From a virus (taxonomy: Duplodnaviria; Caudoviricetes), in the IMG/VR virus record IMGVR_UViG_3300042344_000078, positions 1 through 62,412 of that record: DNA of 62,412 bases; one strand, given 5' to 3'. Shown in pieces: positions 3,209 to 56,201 of the stretch (positions are counted from its first letter, which is position 1; every line of letters begins with the position of its first letter). The position numbers and the translations under genes are program-made. A model generated the notes under the pieces. That model made no database searches. It saw only the letters and a program-made list of their open reading frames with translations, and had not been told where the DNA came from.

Positions 3209-3220
3209 TTTTGTTCGAAC

Positions 3221-3272
3221 TTGACACGCTCAACGTGTTGTGCAATGATCGAACTGTGAACAAATCACACAA
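3221..3272 (+). promoter_or_regulatory. Conserved phage promoter/leader motif
   Basis: TTGACAC-N12-GTGCAATG-ATCGAACTGTGAACAAATCACACAA; related copies at 5713, 56134 and 54601. Confidence 0.75.
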
Positions 3273-3290
3273 TAACTAAGAGGCAATACC

Positions 3291-4711: not shown

Positions 4712-4713
4712 CC

Positions 4714-5565: not shown

Positions 5566-5659
5566 AATACGATAGCTGCCAGTTTGCTATTGTATAGTCT
5601 CACCTGACTTGCATGGTGATCGAGTGGGACTCGAAAACTGGGAAACGAGGAAGCACTAA

Positions 5660-5704
5660 GAGTCGTCGCGGCAATCGCGTAACACGCTGCGGCGACTCAC
5701 TTTT
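5660..5704 (+). terminator. Hairpin / likely terminator
   Basis: GAGTCGTCGCGGC pairs with GCTGCGGCGACTC (two G-U), followed by ACTTTT. Confidence 0.55.
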
Positions 5705-5712
5705 CCGGCGAC

Positions 5713-5764
5713 TTGACACGCGCCGCAACGTCGTGCATCATCGGGCTGTGAACTGAACACACAA
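5713..5764 (+). promoter_or_regulatory. Conserved phage promoter/leader motif
   Basis: TTGACAC-N13-GTGCATCA-TCGGGCTGTGAACTGAACACACAA. Confidence 0.7.
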
Positions 5765-5776
5765 AGGACTAAGGCA

Positions 5777-6880
5777 ATGGACTTACTCAAGCGGTTATCG
5801 AAAGCCAAGACTGGCCTAATCCTAGAGCATCCCTTCATCGGATCGGTTGCCATTAACATGCCGTTCGAACTGGACGAAACCATTGCGACTGCTGGCACCA
5901 ATGGCAAGCGTGTTAGATTTAACCCTGCGTTTATTGAGAAGCTGACTGATGAGGAACTTAAATTCCTTGTCGCTCACGAGTGTCTCCATCCCATGCTCGA
6001 ACATAACTATCGCCGCAATGGACGGACTGCCAAGCGTTGGAATCAGGCGGCTGACTATGTGATTAACCAGCTTCTTGTCGATGAAAAGATTGGCAAGTTT
6101 ATCGACGGCGGCTGTCTCAATCAGGCTACCTATAACGCTGGCGGTGGCACCAGTGACGGTATCTATAACATACTGCCGGAAGATAACGGCGAAGGTGGAG
6201 GTGACATCGGTGGCGCTGGCAATGATCTGGAAGATGGTGAAGGTTCACCTGCCGAACAGGAACAACAAGCCGCAGAATGGCGTGTCAAAGTTGCCCAAGC
6301 CGCGCAAGCCGCGAAGATGATGGGTAAACTGTCGGCTAACATGCAGCGTTTTGTTGACGAAGTATTGCAGCCCAAGGTTGCATGGCAGGATGTGTTGCGT
6401 CGGTTTGTGCAGAAAGCCAAGACGGATCAGCGCACGTTCGCCCGCCCCAACCGTAGGTTCTTGGCGCAGGGTTTGTATATGCCGTCCATCACTGGCGAGG
6501 TTCTTGGTGAGATTGCCATTGCCGTTGATTGCTCTGGCTCTATCGGTCAGCGTGAACTCAATGAGTTTGCTACTGAAATCAAAGCCATGAAGGAAGATGG
6601 CAACCCGTCTGCGCTACATATCGTTTACTTTGACAGTGAGGTTAGTCACTACGATCACTATGGTCGTGACGATGAGGTTGTTATTGAGCCGCACGGTGGT
6701 GGCGGCACAGCGTTCAGCCCCATCTTTCAGTATCTTGAGCAAAACAATATTAACCCTGTCGCTTGTGTCGTGCTTACCGATTTGTATTGCAATGACTTTG
6801 GTGACACGCCGGACTACCCTGTGCTGTGGGTAACCAATGGCACAGACCAAGCGCCTTGGGGTGAAGTGGTTAAGATGTAA
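5777..6880 (+). CDS. DUF2201-like metallopeptidase + VWA domain protein
   Basis: HECLH (HExxH), WNQAADYVIN, MIDAS DCSGS, GGGGTAF, LTD. Confidence 0.85.
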   Translation: MDLLKRLSKAKTGLILEHPFIGSVAINMPFELDETIATAGTNGKRVRFNPAFIEKLTDEELKFLVAHECLHPMLEHNYRRNGRTAKRWNQAADYVINQLLVDEKIGKFIDGGCLNQATYNAGGGTSDGIYNILPEDNGEGGGDIGGAGNDLEDGEGSPAEQEQQAAEWRVKVAQAAQAAKMMGKLSANMQRFVDEVLQPKVAWQDVLRRFVQKAKTDQRTFARPNRRFLAQGLYMPSITGEVLGEIAIAVDCSGSIGQRELNEFATEIKAMKEDGNPSALHIVYFDSEVSHYDHYGRDDEVVIEPHGGGGTAFSPIFQYLEQNNINPVACVVLTDLYCNDFGDTPDYPVLWVTNGTDQAPWGEVVKM

Positions 6881-18265: not shown

Positions 18266-21148
18266 GTGGACATCACTATGAATACGTTGGATTTTCTTCA
18301 GCGGGTACTTCCATCTGATGGGTACTATGTCGCCGTTGCGATTAAGAATAAAAAAGTTTTGCTGCACCGCTTTGTGGACAACATAGTATCTCTAGAGACG
18401 GTAGTAGACGGTATCAGTGCTGGTGGTGGCAATGCGTACTTCGCAGTTGCATCATTTGTTACAAACACTGGCGGTCGAAAACAAGATAATGTGCATAGCT
18501 TAAAGTCTTTATATCTAGATATTGATTGCGGTGTGGATAAACCATACCTCACCCAGCGCGATGGGCTTAAAGCCTTATCCACATTTGTTAAAGAGACGCA
18601 GCTTCCGACGCCAATGATTGTCTCATCGGGCAACGGACTCCATGCGTACTGGATTCTAGATCGTGAGTTGCCGCGTGATGAATGGCAACCGCTGGCCGAC
18701 GCACTGAAGAACGCAACGCAGCAGCTTAAGTTTGAGGTTGATCCCGTGGTGCCAGCCGACAGCGCCCGCATACTGCGGCCAGTCGGGACGATCAATACGA
18801 AGGGCGGGGAACTTGTAACTAGTTTGTTAGCAAAGGATGAGACACACAACGTAGAATATATTGACAGGATACTGTCGCCGTATCGTGTTAACCAAATAAA
18901 GATAAGACCACCGAGCGCGCAGTTCACTCCACTGATTGATCTCAGCACCAAGACTGAGTTCCCCCCGACCAGCGCCGCTGCGATGGTGGATAAATGCCAG
19001 CAGATTCGGTGGGGTGTAGAGAACCAGAAGAAAGTCCAAGAGCCATTCTGGTACGCCTTGCTGGGCATCGCCGCCTATTGCGAAGACCCAGAGGCCACTG
19101 CCGTGGCATGGAGTAAAGACCACCCAGAGTACAGCTACGATAAGACTGTAGCTAAGCTAGAGCATTGGAAGGCGTCAGTCTCAGGGCCGACAACCTGCAA
19201 CAAGTTTCAAGAACTGCGTTCAAGTGGATGCGACAAATGCAAGTTCAAAGGAAGCATAACAACTCCCTGCTCGATTGGCGTAACATATAAGTCTGTTGAG
19301 ATTGATCCTTCCGCACCCGACGAAGTGGCCCACCTCACGCCACTACCACGGGCATACAAACGCGCTAGCGACGGTGGCATTAAGCAGACGATTGACAGCA
19401 CCGACGTAGACATTTGCCCCTTCGACCTGTACCCCGTTGGCTATGGGCGCGACGAAGCGCTGGGCTACGAGACTGTGCGGTATAGGTGGAACAGACCCCA
19501 TGCTGGGTGGCAACCACTGGTATTCAGGCAAGCCTACCTAGCTGACGGAAGCCGCGAGTTCGCGTCGGCCATCGCAGACCAAGGCATTGTGCTACTCCAC
19601 AAACATCAGACGGAAAAATTCCAGATGCTTCTGCGCACCTACATGGATGAACTGCGTAAGATGAAAGCCATGACCAACATCCACACTTCTATGGGGTGGA
19701 AGGATGATAGGTCACAATTCCTAATTGGCGACACGCTGTTCAGACGGCACGACGATGGCTCTGTATCGGAAGAAGTTGTCTCGATCTCGCAGACATCGAA
19801 CCGCGCAGCCCCTACCATGTACGGCGTATCTGGTACGTTGGAAGAAGCCACCAACTTCACCAGCATTATTGATAAAGGCAGACTGCCCATCCAAGGATGG
19901 GCTATGATGATTGGTCTGGCGGCACCGATGTTCGAGTTCACCGGCATCAAGGGCTTGACCATCAATCTGTACGGGCCGTCAGGGTCAGGCAAGTCATTAG
20001 CTCAGCTTATGATTCAGTCCCTATGGGGCAATCCTGATATGCTCCATTACGCATCCAAGTTTACACACAATGCCCTCTATGCCCGCATGGGTCTATGCAA
20101 CAACCTGCCCATGACGATTGATGAAGCCACCACGATGGCGGCTAAAGACATCGGTGATTTCCTGTACGATGTGTCGCAGGGTAGAGAGAAGGCTCGACTG
20201 ACTCGCACTGCAGAGGAACGCAACGCCCGTACGTGGCGGTTACCCTGTATAACATCTGCCAATAAGTCTCTGAATGCCTCGCTTATATCGACTGGCTTGG
20301 AGACCGACGCTCAGATGATGCGCCTCTTTGAGATCACAGTCACCCCGCATCCGTTATTCGAGAAGTCTACAGATGCAGGACAACGTATTTATAACTTCGT
20401 GTCAGTCCATTATGGGACTATTGGTCGGGCCTTCATCCGCAAGCTGTTGGAGATTGGTGCTGAAGACTTAGCCACCATCATTGATAACCACAAGGCTGAG
20501 TTCACCAAGAAGTATAACTGCAAGTTCGAAGGCACCGAACGGTTCTGGGAGCAGAGTGTTATCCTCGCTGACCTAGCTGGCAAGCTGGCCTGCGAGTGGG
20601 GGCTGTTCAAGTTTGACTATACCAAATGCACCAATGCTGTCCTGTCACAGATGGGTTCGATCCGTAAGAATGTGCAGGAGAATGTCACGGATTCCTTCGA
20701 CCTGATCTCTGAGTACCTTAATGCTCATAGCGAGGCAACGATTATCGCTACCCATACTGGTGGTAGCAAGGTGTATGTAGATACCACCCGGCTACCGCGT
20801 AAGGATGTGCGTGTTAGATTTGATCTGTACCGCCCGTCGCATTCCGATCCCTATGAACGAGGCGTTGTCCTGCTGGATAAGACGCACTTCAAACGCTGGC
20901 TCTCCAACAACGGAGCCGATATGCGTACCGTAATGAAAGACATCATAGCGGCGAACGCAGATGCTACGCCCAAGATTGGCAAGGCTTATCTAGCCAAAGA
21001 CTCGTCGATCAAACTGGGCCAGACCTACGTTATTGGTGTCAGTCTACAGCACCCGCGCCTTGTCGGCATCCTTACTGACAAGGATGACAACGCCATCAAC
21101 AACGATCTGGCTGGCTTAACGGTGCTGCAAGGAGGAAGGGTAGATTAG
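18266..21148 (+). CDS. Primase-helicase (AEP/RepB-like primase + Cys-rich domain + DUF927 ATPase)
   Basis: LDID, SSGNGLHAYW, ARILRPVGT; Walker A GPSGSGKS, Walker B MTIDE. Confidence 0.85.
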   Translation: MDITMNTLDFLQRVLPSDGYYVAVAIKNKKVLLHRFVDNIVSLETVVDGISAGGGNAYFAVASFVTNTGGRKQDNVHSLKSLYLDIDCGVDKPYLTQRDGLKALSTFVKETQLPTPMIVSSGNGLHAYWILDRELPRDEWQPLADALKNATQQLKFEVDPVVPADSARILRPVGTINTKGGELVTSLLAKDETHNVEYIDRILSPYRVNQIKIRPPSAQFTPLIDLSTKTEFPPTSAAAMVDKCQQIRWGVENQKKVQEPFWYALLGIAAYCEDPEATAVAWSKDHPEYSYDKTVAKLEHWKASVSGPTTCNKFQELRSSGCDKCKFKGSITTPCSIGVTYKSVEIDPSAPDEVAHLTPLPRAYKRASDGGIKQTIDSTDVDICPFDLYPVGYGRDEALGYETVRYRWNRPHAGWQPLVFRQAYLADGSREFASAIADQGIVLLHKHQTEKFQMLLRTYMDELRKMKAMTNIHTSMGWKDDRSQFLIGDTLFRRHDDGSVSEEVVSISQTSNRAAPTMYGVSGTLEEATNFTSIIDKGRLPIQGWAMMIGLAAPMFEFTGIKGLTINLYGPSGSGKSLAQLMIQSLWGNPDMLHYASKFTHNALYARMGLCNNLPMTIDEATTMAAKDIGDFLYDVSQGREKARLTRTAEERNARTWRLPCITSANKSLNASLISTGLETDAQMMRLFEITVTPHPLFEKSTDAGQRIYNFVSVHYGTIGRAFIRKLLEIGAEDLATIIDNHKAEFTKKYNCKFEGTERFWEQSVILADLAGKLACEWGLFKFDYTKCTNAVLSQMGSIRKNVQENVTDSFDLISEYLNAHSEATIIATHTGGSKVYVDTTRLPRKDVRVRFDLYRPSHSDPYERGVVLLDKTHFKRWLSNNGADMRTVMKDIIAANADATPKIGKAYLAKDSSIKLGQTYVIGVSLQHPRLVGILTDKDDNAINNDLAGLTVLQGGRVD

Positions 21149-24100
21149 TCTGCCGCTTCCTGTTCTCCGGTCAGCGCTTTGAATTGTTCCGCGAACCTGC
21201 GTTCACGCGCAGTCTGCTGCTTCGGCGCACTCTTCAGGTTGGCTATGGCCGATGGCTTGAGGCCGACACGCTTCTTGGCAGACTGGAGAGCCAGCCATTC
21301 AGACTTGGCAGCTTCCACACCAGAACTATCGCCAGCGCGCTGAGCCTCAACGAAGTCGCGGCGCACCTCAGTCGTACGCTCACTGAAGTATTTGTCGTAC
21401 TCGTACATCTCTTGGCGCTTACGGCGGACGTTAGCCATGTTGGTGGACGTAAAGCCAAGTCCCTGCAACATACTGTCAAGAAGCGTAAACTCTTCCGGCG
21501 ATACAACGAGGTCGCCGTTACGGCGCGTGACACCCTTATCGAACGTCTCGCGGTATGCCCGCATCGCGCTCTTGATTCCGTTGGGCATCATAAACTCGAC
21601 GCCTTTCCAGTAATCTCCCTGCGCCATCATGCCCATGCCGTCTGCGAAGTTGGCGGCAGTACCCATAAGCGGGCCACCCACACCAAGAAGCGTACGGCCA
21701 AGACCTTCACGCGAGGTAAGATCAACGTCAGTGTACGGCAGCGGAGAGAAGACATTACCCAAGCCAAGCTGGCCGGAGACATCGACACCGAGGCCAGCCG
21801 GTACACCTTTGAGGATCGTGTCAGCTAACCAGCCATCTCCGATAACCTGACGGAGGAAGCGTTCCTCATTCACCGGCTCATCCGGTGGTCCAAAGATAGC
21901 CGCCAGAATGTAGGACATGAGCGTAGCCAGTGGCAGTCCAAGCGCACCAGTGAACACAGCCGTCTGACCGATGACGTTACGCATGACTGCACGGGCAATG
22001 GCGCGTTCTTCCTTCGATGCACCTGCAAACATATTGTAGCCATTGCGGATCAGCAAAGACGCCTGCATGACTTGGTATTTGCGGAACTGAGTAATCACCT
22101 TGCTGAAGGCGAACGCATTGAAGTAGCGTGGTGCATTCAGGCTAGAGTAATCACCTTGCGTCTGGCTCAGAACTTCAGCCGCATAGTTCAACGCTTGCTG
22201 ATTCGAACGACCATCGGCTTTGGCTAGACGGTACGCAGCCATACCAGCCGTGACACGGTTGGCGACTTCGACCTGACGAGTCAGCGCTGTCAGTTTGTGC
22301 ATGACATCTTGAAGCGCTTTCTGCGGACCACTGGTCTTGAAAGTCTCCCAGTATCCAAGGTCATAGCCCATACCAATGTCGAGCAGTCCGTTGTCACGGA
22401 GCGTCGTCAGAACATCCTGCTCTTCCTTGGAATATGCTGAGCCATCTAGCTTGCGCATCTTGGCTACGTCAAACTCGCCGCGCATAAACTTGTTGAAGTC
22501 GCCTTTGTTCTTGAACAGGCTCGTACCAAGTTCTTTATACGTGCGATTAATCTCGTCGGATGTACGCCCATAGCCAAATTTAGCCGCCATATAAGGGAGA
22601 CTAAGCATGTAGGTCTGAGTCGCATTCTGCAGGTAATACCGAGGTAGCGTAAGCAGCGTCCACATGGAGTTGAACGCCATCAGTTTGTCCTGCAGAGGCG
22701 TCGGCGTATAGGTCAACCCTTGGACATGGCGGCGTAGCACTTCATTCAGCGCCCGCATACGGTCGGCTTTAGAGCCATCAATACCAGCAGCCGCAGCTTC
22801 TTCGTCGGACATACGAGCCTGACGGCTCATCTCTTCAAGCGAGTTCGACACTTCGCTATCATTGGTCATCGACGCAATGAAGTGCGCGTCAGCCGTACCC
22901 TTGGTAGCGAATGCCCGCAGCATGTCGTCATAACCCGCAACGCCAGTACGTGCGAGTTGGTGACGGCGGGCGCTGTTCTCAGCAAGCGTACCAATATACA
23001 GGTCGGTGATAAGCTGATTGATTCGCTCAACTTCTTGAGGCTGGAGATCAGCGGCAAGGTCTTTCTCCACCAGCGTCTTGATTCGCTGGAGGTTGAGCCA
23101 TGCAGGGACATCGACTTTGCCCGGCGACAACTGGCGTTCGAACGCCTCAGTAAACATGCCGGGGAACTGAGCCTTCATCTCCTCTTGCTTCTGCATCGCA
23201 GCGCCAAGCGACTCAGAGAAGATCACAATGTAACTGTCAGGATCAGCACGCAGGGCTTCGAGTTCCGCCTTCTCTTCAGCGGTACGATCCATTGCTGGGA
23301 TAGATTCCAGTTCGCGGAACCGCGCCGACTTGCCGACGGTGACGAACTGACCGAAGCGAGACAGCGGAGCATACGGACCTTCACGCTCCTTGAAGATGGT
23401 ATTCATAAGCTGCAATCTACGTGCAACATCTTCCTGACGCTGCTGCTTGATGTCAGTCGGGAGCGATTCGTACTCTGGTCCCGTGAGTTCGCCCCTAATC
23501 TTTTCTACAATAGCTTGACGCATACGCTTCGAGGTCTTGAAGCCATGCTCGAATATCTGATCCGCCACACGCTGAGCATTTTCAGGCAGCGCTTCGTACT
23601 GCTCTTTGGCAGTCGGGTCTATTACAACTTGTTTACCAATCCATGTAGGCTGGTATCCCCATGCTTGGTCAATAGTGCTGCTGGCTAGAAACTTATTCAG
23701 AGTCTCGCGTGCGTCACCAAGATCACCAGTCTGGAGCATGATCTGATCGACTTCCTGACGCAGCTTATTCGTCAGGGTCATACGGTTAATCATAAAGTCG
23801 AAGTACGTCCGCACCGCTGGCAGCATGGGACTGATCCAGTCCACAAGGTCACGACCAAAGGCCATGCCATATGCTTTCTTCAAAGCGCCATCACGAATGT
23901 TTCTGGCGATAGAGAGCGCAGCCGACTGCATCGGAGCCGGTACCGCACCGGCTACGAACTGCCTGATCGACTCGTCTGTGCTGCGACGTTCCGCTGTTGT
24001 GGCAGTATCCTCCATCGGAGCAATGCCGCCACCGCCGGGAGGAGTCGTATCCTCCTTGATACCGAGGATTTCAGAGAAGTCTGGACCGCCAAGACCGTTG

Positions 24101-27100
24101 AGGAAGTCCGTGACATTCTGTGTAGGCATACCTTCTTTGCGACCAGCATCGAACAACTTGTTCATCAAACGGCCAAGCGTCGAGAAGAACCGTTCAGTGA
24201 TCGTCAGCGGCTTACGCTGCGTCGTAGCCCATTTAGATACCTGATCGGCAAACCATTCGCTAAAGCTATCCCAGTAACCCGGATCAGCCTTAAACATTTC
24301 TCCAGCCGATGCACGACCACGCGCACCGAGAGAACGCACAGATTGCTTGGCTCTCTGCGGCGTACGGAGTAGCCGCATCCATTCAGCCATGGTGGGCATG
24401 GCATATTTAGGATCGGCTTTCCGTAAGAACTTTTCGAAGTCACTCTTGATAGCGGCCTGAACTTCAGGCGAAGCATTGGCGAAGGCGTTAAACTCTACAC
24501 CATGACCGATCTCGTGAGCGATAACTTCGAGCGCCAAAAGATACCGACGCCCACCTGCTTGATTAACCAAGTCTTGGTTAAACAGGATAACATCGGTGCC
24601 GTCACCCAAACGCGTATAAAGGCCACGCGTCGTAGTTGACAACAAATATTTGCGCAGTGAGCCTTTGAGTACAGTTAACTGCGTGTCGGTGATACCGAAC
24701 TGTTTACCACTTTTGGCATTGACAAGTCGCTGCAAATCCCCCTTGGCGATAGAGCCAAAGAGAATCTTGCGGTTGCCAAAGCCAAGCGCCTTCGTCAGTG
24801 CAGACACGTAGTTGGTAAGTCGTGCATCAACATCAGCGATAGTCGTGATGTTACCAACCTTAGTGCCAGCCGGAGTCGGCGTGATTACTTCTTCCGGCTG
24901 CGGCCCGCCTTCGACAACGAGATTGCCACCGCCTGCTTCACCGCCGCCTTCTTGGACTTGGGCCGCGACGTTCCGATTGACCCCTTCGCTTGGTACTTGT
25001 CCACCAACTCCTTGATATTGGCCGACACCACCTTGTTGGACTTGCCCGACTTGAGCGGCATTGGGAACCTCCACTGGTTGAGTAGGAGCGGCAACAGCCG
25101 CAGGAGCGACGGGCGCAGGAGCGGCAGTCGGAGTAGGAGTCGGAGCAGGCGCAGCCGCAGGAGCCGAAACAGGGGCGACAGGAATTGTCGTGGGGTCTGC
25201 TATATATCCATCAAGCTGTTTGAGTAGCTTCTCGCCAGCGTTGATGTGACCCTTGATGATTCGCTCAGCTTCTTTGTACGTGATGCCCTGCGCCTGAGCC
25301 ATCTGAGTAAGCCGCGCCATGGCAGCCTTCGACGGACCGAGAAGTTTTTTTCGTTCCCTCTGTTCAGCAGCGACAAACGCGCGCTGACCCTGAAGGTCTT
25401 GAACAGTCGGAGCCTCTGTAAACTCAAGCGGCTGCACAGGAAGAAGCGTAGCCTTAGCAGCTTCACGACGCGCGTTCATCGCAGTCGTCTCGGCAGCCAA
25501 AGCAGCGCGACTCTGTATCTGCTGTGCGCCAAGTTGGCGCACGATCTGAGCGCCACGACGAAGCCTAGAAACACCGCCTTCCAACGGCATTTCTGTCTGT
25601 GTCTCCACAAGTGGAAGCTGCAGTTGGATCGGCGTAGTAACTGGTATCGTAGCAGGAGTTGGCGCAACGCCAGCACCCCCTTGGAGCGGCAGTGGAATCT
25701 GCTCACCGGGGGGAGTCTGAAGTACACCTTCTGGGAAACCAAATAGCGGCAGTCCTTCGACACCGACCTGCGCGGGCATTGCAGGCGTAGGTGTGGGAGC
25801 AGGAGTCGTGGGCGGTGCAGCGGCAACGCCACGTAGAAGATTCTGTTGCCCAAATGGTAACGTCGGCTGTTCTGCAAGACGTTGCGCCATAGCCTCAGAC
25901 CGACCAGTAGTCGTCAGCCTTCCAGCAGCGTCGATAGCTGCGATAGCTTCACGCGCCCTAGCAATCTGGCTCGTCAGCATGGAGACGCGAACTGGGTCGA
26001 GCGATCCAGCACCAGCAGCGGCAGCCTCAAGCTGGGCATTAGACTCAGCGATCAGACCTTCGAGGCGACGGCGTTCATCAATGGCGGCGAAGTCAGTCTC
26101 ACGAGCAGCGGCAAGCGTCTCACCTGTGGGCTGCATAGTTAACGTCGGAGCTACGCCGAGTTCAGCACCGGGGAACAGTTCGCCCTGTGCGCCCGGTTGC
26201 GGCCCAACAGTCGGAGCTTCTGGCTTCTCACCACCAGCGCCTTCAAGCAAATTGGTGGGTTTCAACGGAGCAGCAACGCCACCCACACCACCGAATGCAC
26301 CACCAAGCACAGCGCCAGCGCCAGCAGCGATGAGTGCAGACTCGCCGTACTTTTCAATGACGTAAGGCGCAAGCGCCTTCCAGTCTGAAGCATTAAGCTG
26401 GCGACGGAACTCAGGATCAAAGACAGCCTGCTGAGCAAGCTGGGTTGCACCTTCAGCAAACGCTTCAGACGCAGCGCCTTCGGCAGTACCAGCGGCTATC
26501 GCGCCAATGCGCGAACTGGCTGCACGTTCACCGGCTTTGACAACCGCATCTTTGAAGAACGGCGAGAAGCCACGGGCAATGACGCCATCGGCTAAGGTCT
26601 GAAGAAGCGTCGTACCACCAGCCGCAGCAGCGATCTGCATACGTGTGCTGGGGTCATCTAGATTATAGGCAGGCGTACCATCAGGATTCTTGGCGTTCTT
26701 CGCTGACTCGTAGAAGTTCTGGAACTCAGACGGGTATGTTGACGCAGCGAGGCCAGTCAGTGCGCCGACTGTACGAGCGCGCCCAATATTAGCAGCAACG
26801 CCAGCAGCCCGAGTGGCGGCAGCAACGCCCCCAACAGCGCCAAGACCACCAGAGACAAGTGAAAAACCAGCAGAAGGAATACCTTGAGCAACGGCGTCCC
26901 ATATGTTTGACAGCGTCGAGTTCGACTGCTGGATGAGGGCGGACCGTGCCTGCTCAGCTTTAGTCTGACCAAAGGTTGATTCGGCAAACCTAGCGATAGG
27001 TTCGCCAACAGATGGAGCACCAACAGTGGTGAGGATATCACCGACGCCACCGATTGTCTGCTCTGCTAATCCACGCGCGCCGAGGGCGACGTTAGCCCCG

Positions 27101-27570
27101 AACCCACGGGGGGTCTTCAGCTTAGAAACATATGCGCCATAGGCGGCGGGACTCATCGGAACCCAGTCTGTCGCCACGCTTGCGGGCGCAGGCTGCATGG
27201 GTTGGTTAATAAGTTTGGAGCCTTCGGATACGTCGAGCGCATTGGTCGCATCAACGAGACGGCCACCGATCCAGAACTTCTGAGTCGAAGGGCTATATGG
27301 AATGTAGGAAGCAGCGCCACCCATGCCGCCAAGACCTTCAGGCGCAGCCGATCCAGTAACGTCAAGACCAGCAGGTGCGCGCTTAAGTTCTGTAGCTCTG
27401 CGAACTTCTTCGCCTATTACTGCAGCATCAGCCTGTGTCGGGCCAATATTACCGACACCCATCTGTGTAGAAGGATCGCCAAGTGCACGTCCATATGGGC
27501 TGCGCGGTCCAATAGCCATAGCATCTAGTATGGGACTGGCGAACTCTACCCCAATTCTGTCCATTGCCAT
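21145..27570 (-). CDS. Giant internal virion / ejection (polyvalent-type) protein, 2141 aa
   Basis: Last gene of the virion operon; HEIGH zincin-like motif; YAPLSRFG (PLxRFG-like) motif. Confidence 0.8.
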   Translation of the reverse strand: MAMDRIGVEFASPILDAMAIGPRSPYGRALGDPSTQMGVGNIGPTQADAAVIGEEVRRATELKRAPAGLDVTGSAAPEGLGGMGGAASYIPYSPSTQKFWIGGRLVDATNALDVSEGSKLINQPMQPAPASVATDWVPMSPAAYGAYVSKLKTPRGFGANVALGARGLAEQTIGGVGDILTTVGAPSVGEPIARFAESTFGQTKAEQARSALIQQSNSTLSNIWDAVAQGIPSAGFSLVSGGLGAVGGVAAATRAAGVAANIGRARTVGALTGLAASTYPSEFQNFYESAKNAKNPDGTPAYNLDDPSTRMQIAAAAGGTTLLQTLADGVIARGFSPFFKDAVVKAGERAASSRIGAIAAGTAEGAASEAFAEGATQLAQQAVFDPEFRRQLNASDWKALAPYVIEKYGESALIAAGAGAVLGGAFGGVGGVAAPLKPTNLLEGAGGEKPEAPTVGPQPGAQGELFPGAELGVAPTLTMQPTGETLAAARETDFAAIDERRRLEGLIAESNAQLEAAAAGAGSLDPVRVSMLTSQIARAREAIAAIDAAGRLTTTGRSEAMAQRLAEQPTLPFGQQNLLRGVAAAPPTTPAPTPTPAMPAQVGVEGLPLFGFPEGVLQTPPGEQIPLPLQGGAGVAPTPATIPVTTPIQLQLPLVETQTEMPLEGGVSRLRRGAQIVRQLGAQQIQSRAALAAETTAMNARREAAKATLLPVQPLEFTEAPTVQDLQGQRAFVAAEQRERKKLLGPSKAAMARLTQMAQAQGITYKEAERIIKGHINAGEKLLKQLDGYIADPTTIPVAPVSAPAAAPAPTPTPTAAPAPVAPAAVAAPTQPVEVPNAAQVGQVQQGGVGQYQGVGGQVPSEGVNRNVAAQVQEGGGEAGGGNLVVEGGPQPEEVITPTPAGTKVGNITTIADVDARLTNYVSALTKALGFGNRKILFGSIAKGDLQRLVNAKSGKQFGITDTQLTVLKGSLRKYLLSTTTRGLYTRLGDGTDVILFNQDLVNQAGGRRYLLALEVIAHEIGHGVEFNAFANASPEVQAAIKSDFEKFLRKADPKYAMPTMAEWMRLLRTPQRAKQSVRSLGARGRASAGEMFKADPGYWDSFSEWFADQVSKWATTQRKPLTITERFFSTLGRLMNKLFDAGRKEGMPTQNVTDFLNGLGGPDFSEILGIKEDTTPPGGGGIAPMEDTATTAERRSTDESIRQFVAGAVPAPMQSAALSIARNIRDGALKKAYGMAFGRDLVDWISPMLPAVRTYFDFMINRMTLTNKLRQEVDQIMLQTGDLGDARETLNKFLASSTIDQAWGYQPTWIGKQVVIDPTAKEQYEALPENAQRVADQIFEHGFKTSKRMRQAIVEKIRGELTGPEYESLPTDIKQQRQEDVARRLQLMNTIFKEREGPYAPLSRFGQFVTVGKSARFRELESIPAMDRTAEEKAELEALRADPDSYIVIFSESLGAAMQKQEEMKAQFPGMFTEAFERQLSPGKVDVPAWLNLQRIKTLVEKDLAADLQPQEVERINQLITDLYIGTLAENSARRHQLARTGVAGYDDMLRAFATKGTADAHFIASMTNDSEVSNSLEEMSRQARMSDEEAAAAGIDGSKADRMRALNEVLRRHVQGLTYTPTPLQDKLMAFNSMWTLLTLPRYYLQNATQTYMLSLPYMAAKFGYGRTSDEINRTYKELGTSLFKNKGDFNKFMRGEFDVAKMRKLDGSAYSKEEQDVLTTLRDNGLLDIGMGYDLGYWETFKTSGPQKALQDVMHKLTALTRQVEVANRVTAGMAAYRLAKADGRSNQQALNYAAEVLSQTQGDYSSLNAPRYFNAFAFSKVITQFRKYQVMQASLLIRNGYNMFAGASKEERAIARAVMRNVIGQTAVFTGALGLPLATLMSYILAAIFGPPDEPVNEERFLRQVIGDGWLADTILKGVPAGLGVDVSGQLGLGNVFSPLPYTDVDLTSREGLGRTLLGVGGPLMGTAANFADGMGMMAQGDYWKGVEFMMPNGIKSAMRAYRETFDKGVTRRNGDLVVSPEEFTLLDSMLQGLGFTSTNMANVRRKRQEMYEYDKYFSERTTEVRRDFVEAQRAGDSSGVEAAKSEWLALQSAKKRVGLKPSAIANLKSAPKQQTARERRFAEQFKALTGEQEAAD
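24885..25061 (-). CDS. Nested alternative-frame gene, 58-aa basic protein (MPLKSGKSNKVVSANIKEL...KQAVAISLSKAG)
   Basis: RBS GGAGGT 5 nt before ATG; resembles a recurrent small phage family (MPLKKGxSxxxISxNI...KQAVAIAxxxAG); overlaps a low-complexity linker of the 2141-aa ORF. Confidence 0.7.
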   Translation of the reverse strand: MPLKSGKSNKVVSANIKELVDKYQAKGSIGTSRPKSKKAAVKQAVAISLSKAGRSRKK

Positions 27571-27581: not shown

Positions 27582-29648
27582 TTAACGGGCCATTGGTATC
27601 GAAAGCGGAATATTCGTAACAGACGGATTAGGCACTACAATGCCATCGGACATCGTAATCTGACCCTGCGGATCAACATAAGCGGCATAAGCCCCGTCTT
27701 TGCGATAGACGAAGAACTTGCCGTCCTCACCTTCTCGTACATCAAATCCGCTCAACTTCAGACGTTCAACTTGTGCCTTAGTGGCGGCGTCATAAAGTTT
27801 TTCAATTTTCTTCTCTTCAATTTTGTAGCCAGCCTTTGCGCTCTCTTTAAGCAATTCGATCTGAAGATCGAGTCTCTTTTTTTCCATTTCATAAGTACGA
27901 GCGCGGTATGATTCACTCAGTGTGTACTGGGCTGCATCCTTAACATCGGCGCGAGACACGTTCGCCCGAGACACTTGGCCATCAACCACCAGATTAAAGT
28001 TGCCATTGGTCAGAGGCTGAATCCCAACCTGACGACCAGTGGCTCGTGACATGGCATTGCTTAGAGATATGTTGTCACCAAGGTCAAAGTTCGTAATAGA
28101 CTGAAGACCTTGAAGATTCTGGTAAGTATTGCGCAACTGGATACGTTTCAAACCAGTCTCAGCAGCTTGGACAATATCACCGCTTTGGGCATAGTACTTC
28201 TGCAGCCGATCAAGTTCACGATCCTGCGCCACAACAACCTGCATATCTCCATTCAGTTTAGGAGGATTACGCAGATATGTCATTGCTGTCGGAGCAGGAG
28301 CAGGTACGCCGGGTTTGGCCTCAAGAGCAGACGTAATAGCTGGAGAAGCTGAAGGTTCTCTTAATCCAGCAGGAGCAACACCGCCCATCGGCGTGGGCGA
28401 TAGCATTTCAGTCGGTAGACCCTGCGGCTGCGCAGCCGCAGTAGCCGCAGCAGTCGTTGGTTCTGCAAGCGCACCGCTGTATTTCTGATAGAATGCCACC
28501 GGATTGCTTTGTGCTTCAGCAAGCAACGTCGGATTCGTGGTTAGCGCATTGACAACTTGCGGAGACTGAAACCATGCCTGTGCTGCTTGCGCCCTCGCAT
28601 CGCGCTGAGCAAGAGCCGCACCGCGTTCTGGTGTGCCTACTAAATAATTAAGGGCGCTAGATACAGGTGCCGCAAAATATTTGCCAGTGGTAGTTGCTGG
28701 GTATCCACCGACAGTTTCCGCTATACCACCAACGGTAAGACCTGCGCCGAGTCTGCTAATGTCCTGTCTAAGACCAGAACTGCCGGGGGGAGCAACACCG
28801 GGACCAGTTTCACCCATCTTGAGCGCAGCCCACTGCTGCATATCACCAGCGGTACGGATGTTTCTAAACACCGATGGATTAGCTGCGATAGCAGCAGCAT
28901 CGACGACTTGAGCGATTGGCGTATTCGGCGCAGCCGACAGCACTTTAGTAGCGCCACCAGCGCCGAGAAAATGCGCAAGGTAAGTATTGGCATTAGTCGG
29001 AGCAAAACCTCTGCTTGCCAATACAGCTTGGTTATCTTCCGTAAACTTCTTGAGCATCGCAGTCTCAACGCCGGTACCGCGTTGAGCAAGAATCTGCTTG
29101 TCAGTCATTCCAGTGGACGCATCAGGAAAAGTTTTCCTAAACGTCTGGACAAATGTGCTGTTGATAAACTGCCCCGGACCCTGAGCCGTTGACAGTGGAT
29201 TACGACCGACACCTTCAGCACGCTGCATCATTGCGTCATAACTAGCAGGCTTAACGCCTACCGTGGTGTATGTACCAAGTCCGCTAGGAGCTACCCCAGT
29301 CGTCGGTGCTTCTACAGGAGCCATATATCCTGCACCAACTGGTGGTCTTGACTGCGCAGGAAGTTCTAGACTGGTACCGCCGCGTGCATACTCTTGCCTT
29401 GCCGCCTCTTGCGACTGCGCTTGGCGTAGTGCGATATCACTAACTTGCCGTTGTTGTTCTAATGCAGCCATTCTATATGGCTGTTCCATAGCAGACTGCT
29501 CTAGCTCCTGCTGATATTTGCGCTGCACGTCTTGTGCAGTAGCTACAGCAGCGGCAGTTCTCTGCCCTTCTTGAAACATCTCCGCAGTTCTTGGACCTGC
29601 AGACATACTTCGCAAATATTCATTAGGATCAAAGACAAGTTCAGCCAT
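27582..29648 (-). CDS. Internal virion protein with a lytic transglycosylase-like domain
   Basis: RAEG...STAQGPGQFINSTF...TYLAHFLGAGGA. Confidence 0.75.
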   Translation of the reverse strand: MAELVFDPNEYLRSMSAGPRTAEMFQEGQRTAAAVATAQDVQRKYQQELEQSAMEQPYRMAALEQQRQVSDIALRQAQSQEAARQEYARGGTSLELPAQSRPPVGAGYMAPVEAPTTGVAPSGLGTYTTVGVKPASYDAMMQRAEGVGRNPLSTAQGPGQFINSTFVQTFRKTFPDASTGMTDKQILAQRGTGVETAMLKKFTEDNQAVLASRGFAPTNANTYLAHFLGAGGATKVLSAAPNTPIAQVVDAAAIAANPSVFRNIRTAGDMQQWAALKMGETGPGVAPPGSSGLRQDISRLGAGLTVGGIAETVGGYPATTTGKYFAAPVSSALNYLVGTPERGAALAQRDARAQAAQAWFQSPQVVNALTTNPTLLAEAQSNPVAFYQKYSGALAEPTTAAATAAAQPQGLPTEMLSPTPMGGVAPAGLREPSASPAITSALEAKPGVPAPAPTAMTYLRNPPKLNGDMQVVVAQDRELDRLQKYYAQSGDIVQAAETGLKRIQLRNTYQNLQGLQSITNFDLGDNISLSNAMSRATGRQVGIQPLTNGNFNLVVDGQVSRANVSRADVKDAAQYTLSESYRARTYEMEKKRLDLQIELLKESAKAGYKIEEKKIEKLYDAATKAQVERLKLSGFDVREGEDGKFFVYRKDGAYAAYVDPQGQITMSDGIVVPNPSVTNIPLSIPMAR

Positions 29649-32764: not shown

Positions 32765-33160
32765 CTAACTTACCAACTGAATAATAATATTATTAACTGC
32801 ATTTCGTAAGTCTGCGACCTCAGCAATCATTTTATTCATGTCACTAGCCAAAACACATTGATTAACTAACGACGGGTACGTAGACGAGTTACTATCATAT
32901 AATGCGCCGTCGCCATAACTGATAATTGTAGCTCCTGCCATTGGATTATTTGGTAGTTGTCCCATGGTCACAGGGATAGCAGTTGGTATTATATCACCGA
33001 CGTTATATGTAGATCGAAGAACAGCCTGAGTAGTAATACTACTACGTTCTTGATTAGCTGTTAAGAGGTTCACATTCTGGATCATAGCATTTAATATTTG
33101 AACTTCCCACGAAGCTACGCCTGTATATGGTACTGGTGGAATGACAGCAAACCTAGACAT
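32765..33160 (-). CDS. Tail-associated paralog 1 (131 aa)
   Basis: MSRFAVIPPVP...W...LNAMIQNVNLL; C-terminal coiled coil. Confidence 0.75.
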   Translation of the reverse strand: MSRFAVIPPVPYTGVASWEVQILNAMIQNVNLLTANQERSSITTQAVLRSTYNVGDIIPTAIPVTMGQLPNNPMAGATIISYGDGALYDSNSSTYPSLVNQCVLASDMNKMIAEVADLRNAVNNIIIQLVS

Positions 33161-35370
33161 TATGCTTCTCTCAAAGACGTAGGTGTATCACCCATATGTA
33201 TAGCCCGTATACGGACATAGCTTTCAACTTCAAGTTCAAAAGTATCGCTCTTATATCCACTGGGCATACGGAATACATCTGAATTAGTACACGCTCTAGT
33301 AAATTTAAGCTGCTTATCTACATAGAAATTAAATGTAATTGGGTCGTCTGAATCCCAAACCTGATCCGCAGATTCCCAAAGTACGGTAGCAAGATTCCAC
33401 GTATAGGGAGTTTCTTCCGTAACATAATCAGCTATAATTCTTGCAGCTCCCAGATTAATAAAATCTTTTGTGATAAGTGTCTTAGATTTCCAAGTTATTT
33501 TTGAAGATGGCTGCGCAAGGTCATCCCAATGGTATATATCTCCTGACGTGCCTGACACTACATATAAAATATTAGTAAGCGAGTCATACCAAGCTGCTGA
33601 AAATATAAAATCGGAATTAACGAATGACGGCGCTTCTTGTTTTGCACCAAATTCGAGCACAATGGACCCGGCGGAGTGAGATGCAAAGTACGTATCTTTA
33701 TACGTGACACCGATAAGTGTCTCTGGATTTAGAGATTCGTTCCATGTATCACTACTATGAATCAATCTCGTAGAGAGCTGCGCGCCAGCAGATGGTGCCC
33801 AAACAGCTAGCCCATCGTGAGTAGAATAAACAACGCCGTAGCTAGTCTCTACAATACTTCTACTATTCAAGCAAGGATATCTAGAAGGTAGCTTAGCCTG
33901 AGTCAGAATCGCCGGATCACTACCGTCAACGATATATGGGTAAGATTCTGTAAGAACTAATAACTGCCCACCTACAGATGCTAGTCCTATGATGTTACTT
34001 TCGAAGGATCGTTTATATTCATCTGGCCACGCATGAAAGCGATTAGGTTCAGAAAAATATAAGTCATTCCCTACGAAACCTGCAAGGAATGTACTTTGAA
34101 CAACGGTCAAACCCTTAAGATCATCAGGCGGTGCAAGATAACTACTTGTAGCTAATACAGTATTTAAACTTTTATAGTTAAAATCATCGGTAAAATTATA
34201 GTTGCCAGCATCACCCCAGTATCTAGCAGTACTAGTAGAAAGTTCTGACACGTCGTAATAAAGCGTACCAGAAGCAGCCGTAGAAGATACAGTGGCTGCA
34301 GTCTGAGCATAAGTAAATGTATACTCGTCAACAACTTCAGATACAATACCACCGGTGATGTTAAAAGATGCGACAGTACACCCGCTGATTTTAAATCTAT
34401 CAGCGGCAATAAGATTATGCGGATATTGAAACGTAACTGTAGAAACATTCGATGCCCGCGCTACAGTTGTAATTGTATTTGGAAACCAAAGAGTTTGAAG
34501 AAGATAATACTCAGCTTGCGTCGTACCGGAAAGAGTACGGTAGAGCCGAATACCACGAATAAAATTATCCCCCGAAGGTGCGGCTGTAGGTAAATTAGAT
34601 ACCGTAACAATCTGACCTTCTTTAATAAATAGCGCAGTTGATGGATCAGAACCGATTGATTCCTCGTTCCACGGTGTATACCACGTATAAAGATATGTGC
34701 GCGCTTGGATCGAACCACCGAGGTCAATCGTACCGCCGGATGCAGTACCGGCTGGACCCACTGCGTAATAACTAAATGATGTAGAACTGATAACCGTAGC
34801 AGTTGTGACTACGTTAAACGTCGTAGGTGTAACGCCGGATACAGATATAGTAGCGCCGTCTTTAATATTATGGGCGCTCGAAGTCGTGACTGTTACGTTG
34901 TTAGCACTATCCCGGCTATATGAACCAGTCGTTATAGCTGTAAACGCTGTAGCTGTAGTCGTAGCCTTCTGTGTAGGAAGCGGTAGGCCAAGTTCATAGA
35001 ATCCAGTTGCTGAAGGATATGGCGCAGATCCACTCGTAGCCAGTCTATAGTTACTGACTTTAGGCTTACCATCACCGGTATAGTAGAACCGTTGTTCGTT
35101 CAGCGAGTCTTGCGCAGGCGTAACAATGTCAACATCTGTTAGCCATGATAGCCAAACAAGAGCGTCTGTACTTGGATTTCTAAGTGCATAGAGTGTCTTG
35201 ATCGTCCCAGTACGGGAGGCAGAAGCCACAATATATGGTGAGCTAAATGGGATAAGATCACCGGAATATAGTTTACAGTTCTGCGCAGTCTGCGCAGCCG
35301 TAGCTGGTAATAACTCTGAAGCTGACTTCGGAGTTGTACCTAAGAATCCGGTGATCTTAATAGCTGGCAT
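33160..35370 (-). CDS. Tail nozzle / tail tubular protein B-like
   Basis: 736 aa, beta-rich; LYFSEPNRFHAWP; position in a podovirus tail module. Confidence 0.7.
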   Translation of the reverse strand: MPAIKITGFLGTTPKSASELLPATAAQTAQNCKLYSGDLIPFSSPYIVASASRTGTIKTLYALRNPSTDALVWLSWLTDVDIVTPAQDSLNEQRFYYTGDGKPKVSNYRLATSGSAPYPSATGFYELGLPLPTQKATTTATAFTAITTGSYSRDSANNVTVTTSSAHNIKDGATISVSGVTPTTFNVVTTATVISSTSFSYYAVGPAGTASGGTIDLGGSIQARTYLYTWYTPWNEESIGSDPSTALFIKEGQIVTVSNLPTAAPSGDNFIRGIRLYRTLSGTTQAEYYLLQTLWFPNTITTVARASNVSTVTFQYPHNLIAADRFKISGCTVASFNITGGIVSEVVDEYTFTYAQTAATVSSTAASGTLYYDVSELSTSTARYWGDAGNYNFTDDFNYKSLNTVLATSSYLAPPDDLKGLTVVQSTFLAGFVGNDLYFSEPNRFHAWPDEYKRSFESNIIGLASVGGQLLVLTESYPYIVDGSDPAILTQAKLPSRYPCLNSRSIVETSYGVVYSTHDGLAVWAPSAGAQLSTRLIHSSDTWNESLNPETLIGVTYKDTYFASHSAGSIVLEFGAKQEAPSFVNSDFIFSAAWYDSLTNILYVVSGTSGDIYHWDDLAQPSSKITWKSKTLITKDFINLGAARIIADYVTEETPYTWNLATVLWESADQVWDSDDPITFNFYVDKQLKFTRACTNSDVFRMPSGYKSDTFELEVESYVRIRAIHMGDTPTSLREA

Positions 35371-44503: not shown

Positions 44504-44731
44504 CTATCTTTTTCTAGATTCTGCTGCCATATCAGGGGCATTTTGCACTAGTTTATATATCTCTGTCAACACTTGGCAACGCCCTTGAGCCAAGTGGACA
44601 GCATCTGGTCCAACATATGGTAGCTGATCTATCTCCCGCTGACGCCACTCGGTTATCCATTCAAGGATCGCCGGATGTGAACGAGAGATAGAAGCCCACT
44701 GTTGGAGAAGTTCTGGGGTAGGGCGAATCAC
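44504..44731 (-). CDS. Small protein between portal and scaffold
   Basis: AQGRCQVL motif; coupled to the portal gene. Confidence 0.65.
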   Translation of the reverse strand: MIRPTPELLQQWASISRSHPAILEWITEWRQREIDQLPYVGPDAVHLAQGRCQVLTEIYKLVQNAPDMAAESRKR

Positions 44732-46776
44732 GCACCACCACCTTGCGGTCTAGCAGTAGCAGCACTCATGCCGCCCGCTGGATTCCCTGCTTGATCGAGT
44801 GTCGCTCCCTGTGGCTGTTGCTGTGGCGCTGCCGCCTGCGCTGCCTGTTGCATCCGCTGAGTATTACTCAGCCGCTCGCGTGAAGGAACGATTTCATCGA
44901 CCGGCATCTGAAGCCCCTTAGCGATCTCACGGAGAATCGCAGCGCGGCCATCTTTGCCGATGATGCTCATATCGACCTCATTGCCAGTGGCGTTGAGGAA
45001 CTCGACACGACGCATATTGACAGTCTCCTTGACTGCCAGATTAACAGCACCACGTGGAATAACTTGAGCGTCACCCTTGATCGACTCATCCGCATCGTAG
45101 CGCATATTGTATACAAACTGGCGCTCAACAATCGGCATGATAATGTCGTTGTCGATGTGCATCACAACCTGACGGATACCCTTACCAGCTGAACCCATGA
45201 GCATGGACAGTCCCGATGCAGTACGACCTGCGCCCTTAACATCTACGTCTCCATAGATATAAGATGGGATACCAGAATGATCGTCAGCTAAGCGGCTAAA
45301 CCGTTCATAAACAGCCATCAACGTATTGGCATTATCATTAGGCTGGTTGAAGCGAATAGCCGGGGCTGACCCACCTAATGGGTCGTTAAGGACTTGCCAA
45401 ATTTTCCATGGGTGCATCTGGGTAATATCCTCGTTAGGAGGAATACGTTCCAGATTAACCTCGACCTGTGGGCCAGAAGCAATGCCCATGTTATTGACGA
45501 GCGCACGCGCCGCCGCATTACAGATATTTTGCAGGTCCTCAATGATCTCAGGAATACCACGCCCCCAGAATGATCCGGGGGTCTTAATGAACGACGTTTT
45601 CGCATAGGGCTTCTCGCCCAAAGGATCGTAGTTCAGAATAGCTTTGATGACATAGTTACCGACAAGCCAGATATTGGCGTCGTACTCACGTGCTTCGTCA
45701 GGCGCATCCTCTTCGGACATACCCCACTCGCGGAGCATAGCTCCACTGACTTTACCCCAGAACTCAAGGGCATCGAACATATCTGTCGGGCGCATCTCGG
45801 TATAGAACTTGCGTTCTTCTTCCTCGCGCTCCTGCTCAATCGTCTCCGCGACCCAAGATTGTCCCGGTCCGATCTCTAATACTTTACGAATGGCTTGGTC
45901 GTCATAGCCGGGACAGCCGATCAAATCAGATAGACCGGTCCGGGTAAGTTTATGGTGTTCAAAAATATATCCGTCGTTGATCCGGGTAATCCCCGGCTCT
46001 GGATAAATATTGAAAGGACTTACCCTCTCAAATTCCGGTGCAAGTCTCTCGCCCGCTTCGACAATAGTTTTACCGTCTGGACCTTTCGCCCAGCTAAGGT
46101 GTCGTTGGCGACGGACCACAGGACCTTTGATAAAAGCACAAGGGAAAGTAACAAGATCAGTGATGAACTCATTGAACGACTCCGGCCATCCCCCTTGAGC
46201 AAACTGATCTTCGATCTTAATCTTCATTTTGTCAACACGGATCTGTGCTGCCTCTAGAATCTTAAACCGATATTGCTGGGAGATAACCTCTTTTAATTCA
46301 ACGAGTTCCGATTTAGACGGTGCAGCGCCTGTTGCCTGAATAACCGCCATAACTTCTTCAGCAAAGGCTGCTTGAAGCGCCGTGCTATCATCAGGCGACA
46401 AGTCTGGAATAGGCGTAGGAGACATATCCCACGGAGGAGACCCCGTTTCGAGCAGGATATCCCGCAGCCAGCTTTCAGCCGCACGGCACTTTACTTCCGT
46501 GAGCATCATGTAGACTTCGGACCCGCCCTGATTCTGGATCGCGTTTAACTTATCTGCCTCATATTCGCCATTGCGCTGCCGCATGGCACGTAGCATGATG
46601 TGGTTAATCGGCTCTCGCGCTATGCGCGCTGCATCCCAGCAGCGTTTAAGATACGCAGATAGTCCAAGGATTACCGAATCCTGCTGCCGTGCCTGAAGTT
46701 CTTGTTCCATGCGTTCGCGTTCAGCTTTATCAAGCTGTTCGCTACTGACAACACGAAGGAGAGTTAATCCGGCCAT
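44728..46776 (-). CDS. Portal protein
   Basis: 682 aa; FWGRGI...LQNICNAAARALVNN; GRTASGLSML; position. Confidence 0.85.
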   Translation of the reverse strand: MAGLTLLRVVSSEQLDKAERERMEQELQARQQDSVILGLSAYLKRCWDAARIAREPINHIMLRAMRQRNGEYEADKLNAIQNQGGSEVYMMLTEVKCRAAESWLRDILLETGSPPWDMSPTPIPDLSPDDSTALQAAFAEEVMAVIQATGAAPSKSELVELKEVISQQYRFKILEAAQIRVDKMKIKIEDQFAQGGWPESFNEFITDLVTFPCAFIKGPVVRRQRHLSWAKGPDGKTIVEAGERLAPEFERVSPFNIYPEPGITRINDGYIFEHHKLTRTGLSDLIGCPGYDDQAIRKVLEIGPGQSWVAETIEQEREEEERKFYTEMRPTDMFDALEFWGKVSGAMLREWGMSEEDAPDEAREYDANIWLVGNYVIKAILNYDPLGEKPYAKTSFIKTPGSFWGRGIPEIIEDLQNICNAAARALVNNMGIASGPQVEVNLERIPPNEDITQMHPWKIWQVLNDPLGGSAPAIRFNQPNDNANTLMAVYERFSRLADDHSGIPSYIYGDVDVKGAGRTASGLSMLMGSAGKGIRQVVMHIDNDIIMPIVERQFVYNMRYDADESIKGDAQVIPRGAVNLAVKETVNMRRVEFLNATGNEVDMSIIGKDGRAAILREIAKGLQMPVDEIVPSRERLSNTQRMQQAAQAAAPQQQPQGATLDQAGNPAGGMSAATARPQGGGA

Positions 46777-56099: not shown

Positions 56100-56133
56100 T
56101 TTCACTCCGGCAACCCGTTGAACTTGTGTGCAT

Positions 56134-56186
56134 TTGACACAAGCGGCGATTCGTGCAATGCTCGAACTTGTGAACAAAACACACAA
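56134..56186 (+). promoter_or_regulatory. Conserved phage promoter/leader motif
   Basis: TTGACAC-N12-GTGCAATG-CTCGAACTTGTGAACAAAACACACAA. Confidence 0.75.
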
Positions 56187-56201
56187 CGAAAGGGTTAGGC
56201 A

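Follow-up and report, generated by a model that had tools for sequence, protein, structure and literature searches.

A gene of the phrog_2423 family nested in the predicted linker region of a giant virion protein gene in a tailed phage

Here, we describe a gene within a gene in the IMG/VR virus record IMGVR_UViG_3300042344_000078 (Caudoviricetes), whose whole stretch of 62,412 nucleotides (nt) was analysed and will be hereafter referred to as the window. An open reading frame (ORF) of 58 codons, followed by a TAA stop, is located at 24885-25061 on the (-) strand. It lies wholly within an ORF of 2141 amino acids (aa) at 21145-27570 (-), on the same strand and in a different frame. The small ORF encodes a basic protein of the phrog_2423 family, and the giant ORF encodes a putative ejection protein. 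Based on sequence comparison, these 177 nt at 24885-25061 (-) are very probably dual-coding, with the small gene being the older of the two and the giant gene using its alternate frame as a linker.

The ATG of the nested gene (25061-25059 (-)) is preceded by a Shine-Dalgarno-like GGAGG (25068-25072 (-)), with a spacer of 6 nt. The start-to-start distance between the giant and the nested ORF is 2509 nt, which places the inner frame at +1. The original prediction, which was made from the letters of the window, had described a 58-aa ORF with an ATG and a GGAGG inside the giant ORF, and its coordinates, translation and frame were all reproduced. It had also held that the nested copy is complete and has its own ribosome binding site, and the ATG, the TAA and the GGAGG at 6 nt are in place. 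The translation, which is the peptide quoted there, has an isoelectric point of 11.0 and contains 16 Lys and Arg versus 2 Asp and Glu. In the giant frame the overlap (24883-25062 (-)) corresponds to residues 837-896, a poorly conserved Gly/Gln/Val/Glu-rich segment without stops. This segment reads NAAQVGQVQQGG...GGPQPEEVI, and 92% of it is made of Gly, Gln, Val, Glu, Pro, Ala and Asn, in agreement with the earlier description of an enclosing frame that stays open as a low-complexity linker beside Ala/Pro tracts. A lone open alternate frame of 58 codons is unremarkable in itself, 16 ORFs of at least 40 aa being found within 2 kb of the site. The nested copy is the only member of its family in the 62,412-bp record. 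A promoter and terminator scan of 24600-25600 gave 0 sites of either kind, and a DNA search of the phage collection with 24000-26000 gave a single irrelevant match of 100 nt.

The nested peptide matches the phrog_2423 profile with an E-value of 1.5e-11 (45.1 bits), and a search of 5.8 billion clusters revealed 88 related protein clusters of 43-99 aa, with E-values down to 4e-23. The homology of the nested peptide is thus beyond chance. Two motifs are near-invariant in the family, MPLK.G..(K)..S.N in the N-terminal region and KQAVAI..SKAG in the C-terminal region, and the nested peptide has both. Residues L3, G6, N15, I29, G30, Q43, A44, A46 and K51 are invariant in 35 sequences, including that of the window. 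A 43-aa short form of the protein has matches in 447 records of phages that were cultured or deposited, among them PB1-like Pseudomonas phages, Acinetobacter phages, phiEap-2 and Prochlorococcus phages. The profile match, the 88 clusters and the 447 records bear out the claim that the peptide belongs to a widespread phage family whose genes normally stand free. At least 337 IMG/VR loci encode the small protein, of which 80 were kept for analysis, and in 67 unique free-standing IMG/VR loci the small gene is directly downstream of a large gene. An AlphaFold2 model, made with the alignment of 35 sequences, confidently predicts a two-helix hairpin composed of helices 9-26 and 37-51, with a mean predicted local distance difference test (pLDDT) score of 85.6.

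The nested arrangement was found repeatedly, both from the small protein and from the giant protein. Among the 80 IMG/VR loci found via the small protein, 11 are nested, in outer ORFs that have 2172-2790 aa or are cut by the contig end, and the relative frame is identical in all 11. Relatives of the giant protein were sought with its conserved N-terminal domain (aa 1-480, 26131-27570 (-)). Of the 19 loci that this query gave, 2 are truncated short of the site; the other 17 all have the small gene nested in the +1 frame. A second type of N-terminal module (N-module), that of the called protein P0091, gave 20 loci; 1 ends before the site and the other 19 carry the nested gene. All 36 N-module loci that reach the site are therefore nested. 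Altogether, 42 distinct contigs and the window have the nested gene, and these 43 contigs, from which repeated contigs had been removed, correspond to 33 unique nested sequences. In the full-length cases the nested start lies about 680-920 codons into the giant ORF. A 48-aa short form, in which ~20 central residues are missing, is found nested in this frame at L092:12111 and L098:12309, and thus both length variants of the family occur nested; the outer ORFs have 2306 aa in L092, where the contig end cuts it, and 2454 aa in L098. The statement that gene callers would miss such a gene holds in part. Callers that forbid nested calls drop it, but one copy, P0003, which is identical to the nested copy of locus L087, was called by the Joint Genome Institute on a contig of 1.2 kb.

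The outer frame has no stop across the overlap in any of the 33 unique nested sequences, and the third frame of the same strand has 1-4 stops in every one of them. When the nested protein was kept and its synonymous codons were redrawn from the codon usage of the giant gene, 4.2-6.3 outer-frame stops were expected, and the probability of finding none was 0.0002-0.005 per sequence. Furthermore, the corresponding frame is interrupted by one or more stops in 69 of 70 free-standing copies, with a mean of 4.8 stops. The comparison with resampling and with the free-standing copies indicates that the outer frame is held open by codon choice. The ratio of Lys codons AAG:AAA is 269:67 in nested copies versus 430:329 in free-standing ones.

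Twelve nested copies, with up to 47% difference between their protein sequences, were compared in both frames. Their mean amino acid identity is 0.66 in the inner frame versus 0.37 in the outer frame, and the inner value is the higher one in 66 of 66 pairs. The numbers of variable columns at inner codon positions 1, 2 and 3 are 37, 30 and 53 of 55, respectively, and this peak at third positions is what a gene shows when the inner frame is its coding frame. The giant genes of the window and of locus L084 were aligned in segments of 60 codons. The identity at outer third positions is 0.25-0.58 clear of the overlap, 0.70-0.76 in two segments that overlap it in part, and 0.95 in the segment centred on the nested gene. 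The nucleotide identity over the nested gene is 0.86, which is the maximum along the giant gene. The nested gene is the best-conserved element of the giant genes. Since substitutions track the inner frame, the inner gene would be the older and more constrained partner, and the identities of 0.66 and 0.37 agree with the earlier proposal that the segment of the giant protein is the derived reading and the small gene the conserved one.

These comparisons also bear on the view that the inner ORF is an unexpressed relic, whose conservation would come from the giant protein or from an RNA or DNA element. A strong RNA fold, which is predicted at about +140 to +150 of the inner gene (mean minimum free energy, MFE, -16.5), could point to such an element. 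However, the inner third positions are the most variable (53 of 55 columns) and the outer peptide is 37% conserved as opposed to 66% for the inner one. Furthermore, the start, the stop, the Shine-Dalgarno motif and the motifs of the family are retained between copies whose identity is as low as 53-58%, and the free-standing copies L005 and L006 fall in a well-supported nested clade (96/96). An unexpressed relic is the least probable of the explanations considered here, and hardly credible.

The giant ORF is the last gene of the virion module, and its PHROG matches are in its C-terminal part. The C-terminal ~880 residues match PHROG families of DarB-like and related giant proteins (phrog_10089, E-value 1e-51). 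This C-terminal module (aa 1230-2109, 21244-23883 (-)), which is common to DarB-like/PLxRFG giant phage proteins and includes the PLxRFG motif as PLSRFG (aa 1402-1407, 23350-23367 (-)), matches 53 phage records, among them those of ~60-kb phages such as Parlo, PEp14, LASTA, F116 and Vibrio phage 1F273_PE002. Upstream of the giant gene, two genes match PHROG families annotated 'transglycosylase' (27582-29648) and 'internal virion protein' (33160-35370), and Parlo and Vibrio phage 1F273_PE002 have this layout too. From gene order and the PHROG matches, it is plausible that the giant protein is an ejection protein. This label is reasonable because polyvalent giant proteins are predicted, in Iyer et al. 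2017 (PMC5512222), to be packaged and injected. The linker (aa 800-895, 24886-25173 (-)) is predicted to be disordered, and its last 59 residues are the overlap. In an AlphaFold2 model of aa 640-1150, residues 800-895 have pLDDT values of 25-39 and are without secondary structure. They are preceded by a helical region (pLDDT 57-89) and followed by a folded domain (pLDDT 65-81), which starts directly past the inner stop in the model. The folded domain after the linker has the sequence HEIGH (HExxH, aa 1019-1023, 24502-24516 (-)), which is metallopeptidase-like by motif only.

Of the 33 unique sequences, 24 start the nested gene with ATG and 9 with GTG, and all 33 have a Shine-Dalgarno-like purine motif at -16 to -6. 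Of the mRNA within +/-600 nt, the part around the inner start has the least structure, with a mean MFE of -6.9 versus -11.7 +/- 1.3, and the z-score of mRNA structure at this point is positive in 28 of 28 loci. We infer that initiation at the nested start is internal and independent. The strongest predicted RNA structure within +/-600 nt is found at +140 to +150 of the nested start, near the 3' end of the nested gene, which corresponds to about 24910-24920 in the window; its mean MFE of -16.5 was obtained with 50-nt segments over 28 nested loci. It may reflect GC-rich codons for the KQAVAI..SKAGR motif.

The inner frame could otherwise be reached by a programmed +1 ribosomal frameshift, which would yield a fusion of the N-module and the small protein that ends at the inner stop. 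Such a fusion exists as a called protein in P0091 (785 aa), where the two parts are in frame, and the free-standing small gene is also in the +1 frame at the end of its upstream gene. However, a start codon (ATG or GTG) and the Shine-Dalgarno-like motif are each present in 33/33 nested sequences, and in 9/33 an inner-frame stop is located 3-6 codons before the start, which leaves almost no space for a shift site. Inspection of the upstream sequences by eye revealed no conserved slippery motif. Moreover, among the 19 loci of the P0091 type that extend to the site, none has the fusion, and P0091, which forms a cluster of a single member, is consistent with a 1-nt indel; its fusion is probably due to such an indel in its contig. 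Frameshifting is accordingly a very unlikely route to the inner frame. Relatives of P0091 are found at L104 and L105.

In the dual-coding arrangement proposed here, ribosomes that start at the giant ATG (27570) would read the overlap in frame 0. They would produce the last ~60 residues of a disordered Gly/Gln/Val/Glu spacer of ~95 residues, which would join the N-terminal module (aa 1-~800) to the C-terminal module with its HExxH and its PLxRFG/DarB-like part. The full-length product would probably be a virion protein that is packaged or ejected. A second group of ribosomes would bind the internal GGAGG (25072-25068) and initiate at the ATG at 25061, in the +1 frame, to yield a free, very basic, two-helix protein of 58 aa of the phrog_2423 family. 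The giant gene would have recruited the alternate frame of the small gene as a linker, and selection would keep this outer frame free of stops via synonymous codon choice in the small gene.

Several points weigh against this proposal. The 33 unique nested sequences are mutually related, and so the counts given above are not counts of independent events. The tree of the small protein is poorly resolved and requires 2-5 changes between the nested and the free state, so that a single origin of the nesting is not established. The N-terminal domain of the giant protein has no match among 50,697 phage records. The model of the linker comes from an alignment of only 5 sequences and has a mean pLDDT of 54. 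The set of Shine-Dalgarno motifs that were accepted is permissive (GGAG, GAGG, AGGA, AAGG and GGGG), and the low structure of the mRNA at the inner start may come in part from a composition rich in purines and Lys codons. P0091 does fuse the N-module with the small protein, the switch of frame being ~29 codons before the inner start. Finally, no solved structure, fold match or Pfam family backs a function of the small protein.

The arrangement had been attributed to the insertion of a complete gene into the linker, an event that would be seen as an indel among homologues of the giant protein. This event is unproven, as the nested gene is carried by 36/36 loci of the N-module families that reach the site, and the comparison of homologues gave no empty site in these families. 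By insertion, a mobile cassette composed of the small gene and its ribosome binding site would have entered the flexible linker of an already fused giant gene, and would have been free of stops and frame-keeping by chance. The small gene is found in several contexts, after a portal gene, after a portal gene and a head-morphogenesis gene, and elsewhere, which indicates that it moves between positions. An Ala/Pro-rich linker is present on both sides of it in the giants, it is absent only from distant PLxRFG/DarB-like giants (2/2 in cultured phages; best hmmsearch E-value 0.7), and the tree of the small protein needs at least 2 changes of state. Against insertion, the same giant family has no empty site (36/36 occupied), and an incoming copy would have to be free of stops in the frame of the host, for which the probability is 0.0002-0.005 and which is the case in 1/70 free-standing copies. 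Furthermore, all nested copies are in a single relative frame, the one that matches the usual overlap of the upstream stop with the small gene. Insertion could have happened, but we would not expect it.

We slightly favour, over insertion, a fusion by read-through after the loss of a stop, an origin that comes close to being probable. The stop that would have been lost is that of the upstream gene, located within codons 3-4 of the small gene. The TAA of the upstream gene is at nt 9-11 of the small gene (CTT-AAR) in 40 of the 67 unique free-standing loci, and the frame of an upstream gene that ends at this CTT-AAR is the relative frame of the giant ORF in nested loci. At codon 3, CTT is used by 39/67 free-standing copies and by 0/33 nested ones. 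In the free-standing loci L068 and L069, the small gene has a single stop in its +2 frame, the TAA of the upstream portal gene at nt 9-11, and thus a portal ORF running through the whole small gene is one change away, a change that would be synonymous in the latter. This overlap, the contrast at codon 3 and the two loci make loss of a stop attractive. A single change from CTT to CTC at codon 3, which is synonymous in the small gene, could have begun the nesting; however, this frame has other stops as well in most free-standing copies. It also speaks against read-through that the upstream genes of free copies are portal genes while the N-modules of the giants are not portal-like, and that no unfused arrangement of N-module, small gene and C-terminal module was found. 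The idea that the N-module of the giant is itself a portal came from the ~790-aa portal before free copies and from the nested starts ~680-920 codons into the giants. It was ruled out, with no BLASTP match at 1e-3 and hhalign probabilities of 1.8% and 0.3%. The free-standing copies L005 and L006 are within a supported clade of nested copies (96/96), and this placement, together with the changes of state in the tree, indicates that the small gene changed its context more than once.

The neighbours of the free-standing copies point to the head module. The upstream protein is a portal in 8 of 10 sampled cases (phrog_1216 or phrog_156). In phage DSL-LC04 the small gene, which encodes a protein of 83 aa, is directly after the annotated portal gene, and in Pseudomonas phage PB1 gp20 comes after the genes of a portal-sized minor head protein and of a head-morphogenesis protein. 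A role as a head-module factor is proposed because, in other phages, the small gene comes directly after the portal gene, often overlapping its end, or after the portal and a head-morphogenesis gene. From this gene context, the small protein might tentatively be assigned as a factor that acts with the complex of portal and internal proteins or with the packaged DNA. A predicted complex of the portal of the window with the small protein had a score of 0.00, which is evidence neither way. A Foldseek search of the Protein Data Bank (PDB) with the model of the small protein gave nothing meaningful (best E-value 3.0). Its profile found, among PDB sequences, only a 23-residue match to Arc-repressor constructs, which extends into the His tags of these constructs (E-value 0.0043), and PB1 gp20 had no match in the PDB. 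The nested peptide passes no Pfam family and has sub-threshold matches only. DUF6496 (PF20106) does not match the peptide of the window, the gathering cut-off not being reached; it gives weak matches in 2 of 35 family members (best E-value 0.023) and is found on 17% of the members of one Atlas look-alike cluster. A link between DUF6496 and the small protein would be a distant relationship at most, and could serve as a lead.

It is unlikely, in our judgement, that the nesting is itself functional, in the sense that the small protein, whose expression normally goes together with that of the portal, would be made in cis from the giant mRNA at the module boundary and would act as an adaptor or chaperone that brings the giant ejected protein to the complex of portal and core, or as a DNA coat beside the giant protein. 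If this were true, an abundant, uncultivated, podophage-like clade would have locked an ancient head gene in its largest gene. The portal gene of the window is located at 44728-46776 (-), and its product has 4658 relatives at E-values of 1e-20 or below among 8000 candidates scored, which indicates that this phage group is very common in metagenomes. The portal has a precomputed Pfam assignment, PF23899, and its best 120 relatives are at least 73% identical to it. The slot after the portal in the window is taken by an ORF of 75 aa (44504-44731 (-)), with a GTG start and an overlap of 4 nt with the portal stop, which is outside the small-protein family.

Lambda Rz1 is embedded in Rz in the +1 frame, and in the classical nested pairs, Rz/Rz1 and PhiX174 gene E in gene D, the contained gene is the newcomer. 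Rz1 is not known to be a captured member of a widespread free-standing family. Here, in contrast to Rz/Rz1, the inner gene would be the older one, from a family that is usually found beside the portal gene, and the container is a virion protein of more than 2000 aa that reads the overlap only as a disordered linker. The two systems are alike in that a small gene with its own start is embedded in a larger gene of the same strand; according to PMC5295617 and PMC6139136, both products are needed in lambda, and Rz and Rz1 are partners in one function. PhiX174 gene E in gene D is likewise an internal overlap on the same strand with asymmetric constraint, as described in Pavesi 2021 (PMC8227390), a review that reports de novo frames to lie mostly at +1 relative to the ancestral ones. 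In the pair described here, however, the contained gene would be ancestral, and the novel reading, which is the linker of the container, is -1/+2 to it.

The closest known counterparts of the two genes are found apart from each other. PB1 gp20 and the 83-aa protein of DSL-LC04 are phrog_2423 proteins of virion or head modules, basic and with the shared motifs. Unlike the nested gene, their genes stand free, and many free-standing phrog_2423 genes overlap the portal stop by 11 nt. The C-terminal module of the giant is in common with gp81 of Serratia phage Parlo and gp63 of Vibrio phage 1F273_PE002, and its identity is 22.9-28% over 73-91% of the query among the matches listed. As in the window, the giant gene is the last large gene of the virion module in these two phages, but its product has a different N-terminal part and no small gene is nested in it (best hmmsearch E-value 0.7). 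A literature search, which covered articles but not their supplementary files, found no published account of the present arrangement among works on overprinted, embedded or nested genes and internal virion or ejection proteins. The words 'overlapping' and 'frameshift' occur 0 times in the text of PMC5512222.

Same-strand nested genes are already known in phages, and what would be new here is the old age of the contained gene and the novelty of the container segment. The arrangement is a well-supported comparative case in a large double-stranded DNA phage, with both frames maintained across 43 contigs. Its polarity, in which an old gene is contained and the reading of the container is new, would be the reverse of textbook overprinting. 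The case indicates that an existing gene can supply, through its alternate frame, the disordered linker of a giant protein. Gene callers in which nested calls are forbidden would drop a conserved head-module gene from all full-length genomes of the group. The inner start can be removed without altering the giant protein; in the window, the central base of its ATG falls at the third position of an Asn codon of the giant frame. This offers a clean genetic handle on the role of the small protein.

The giants are mosaic, their N- and C-terminal modules being combined differently, and some pairs are without any BLAST similarity. The N-modules of the window type and of the type found at L003 aligned with an hhalign probability of 94.9% (E-value 4e-8) over a Gly/Ala-rich region, and they are probably distant homologues. 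Sharp mosaicism is also seen within the giant genes of the window, L082, L084 and L087, and indicates recombination tracts inside the giant gene. The giant of the window has 27% identity to that of L087 over aa 1-120 and 95-100% over aa 446-770, and it has 26-30% identity to that of L082 at aa 710-770 and ~98% elsewhere.

The 62,412-bp record, which IMG/VR classes as linear, is 100% complete by CheckV and has a GC content of 50%. It has an exact direct repeat of 4.58 kb, at 2024-6604 and 57833-62412, whose copies are 55,808-55,809 bp apart, the second one reaching the end of the record. The ~2 kb that precede the two copies (1-2023 and 55809-57831) are unrelated, save for short matches of 79-88% at 1877-2017, 57694-57762 and 57778-57825. 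The repeat looks like either a genuine one of this length or the outcome of an assembly that wraps around, or is a concatemer, and that includes a variable segment.

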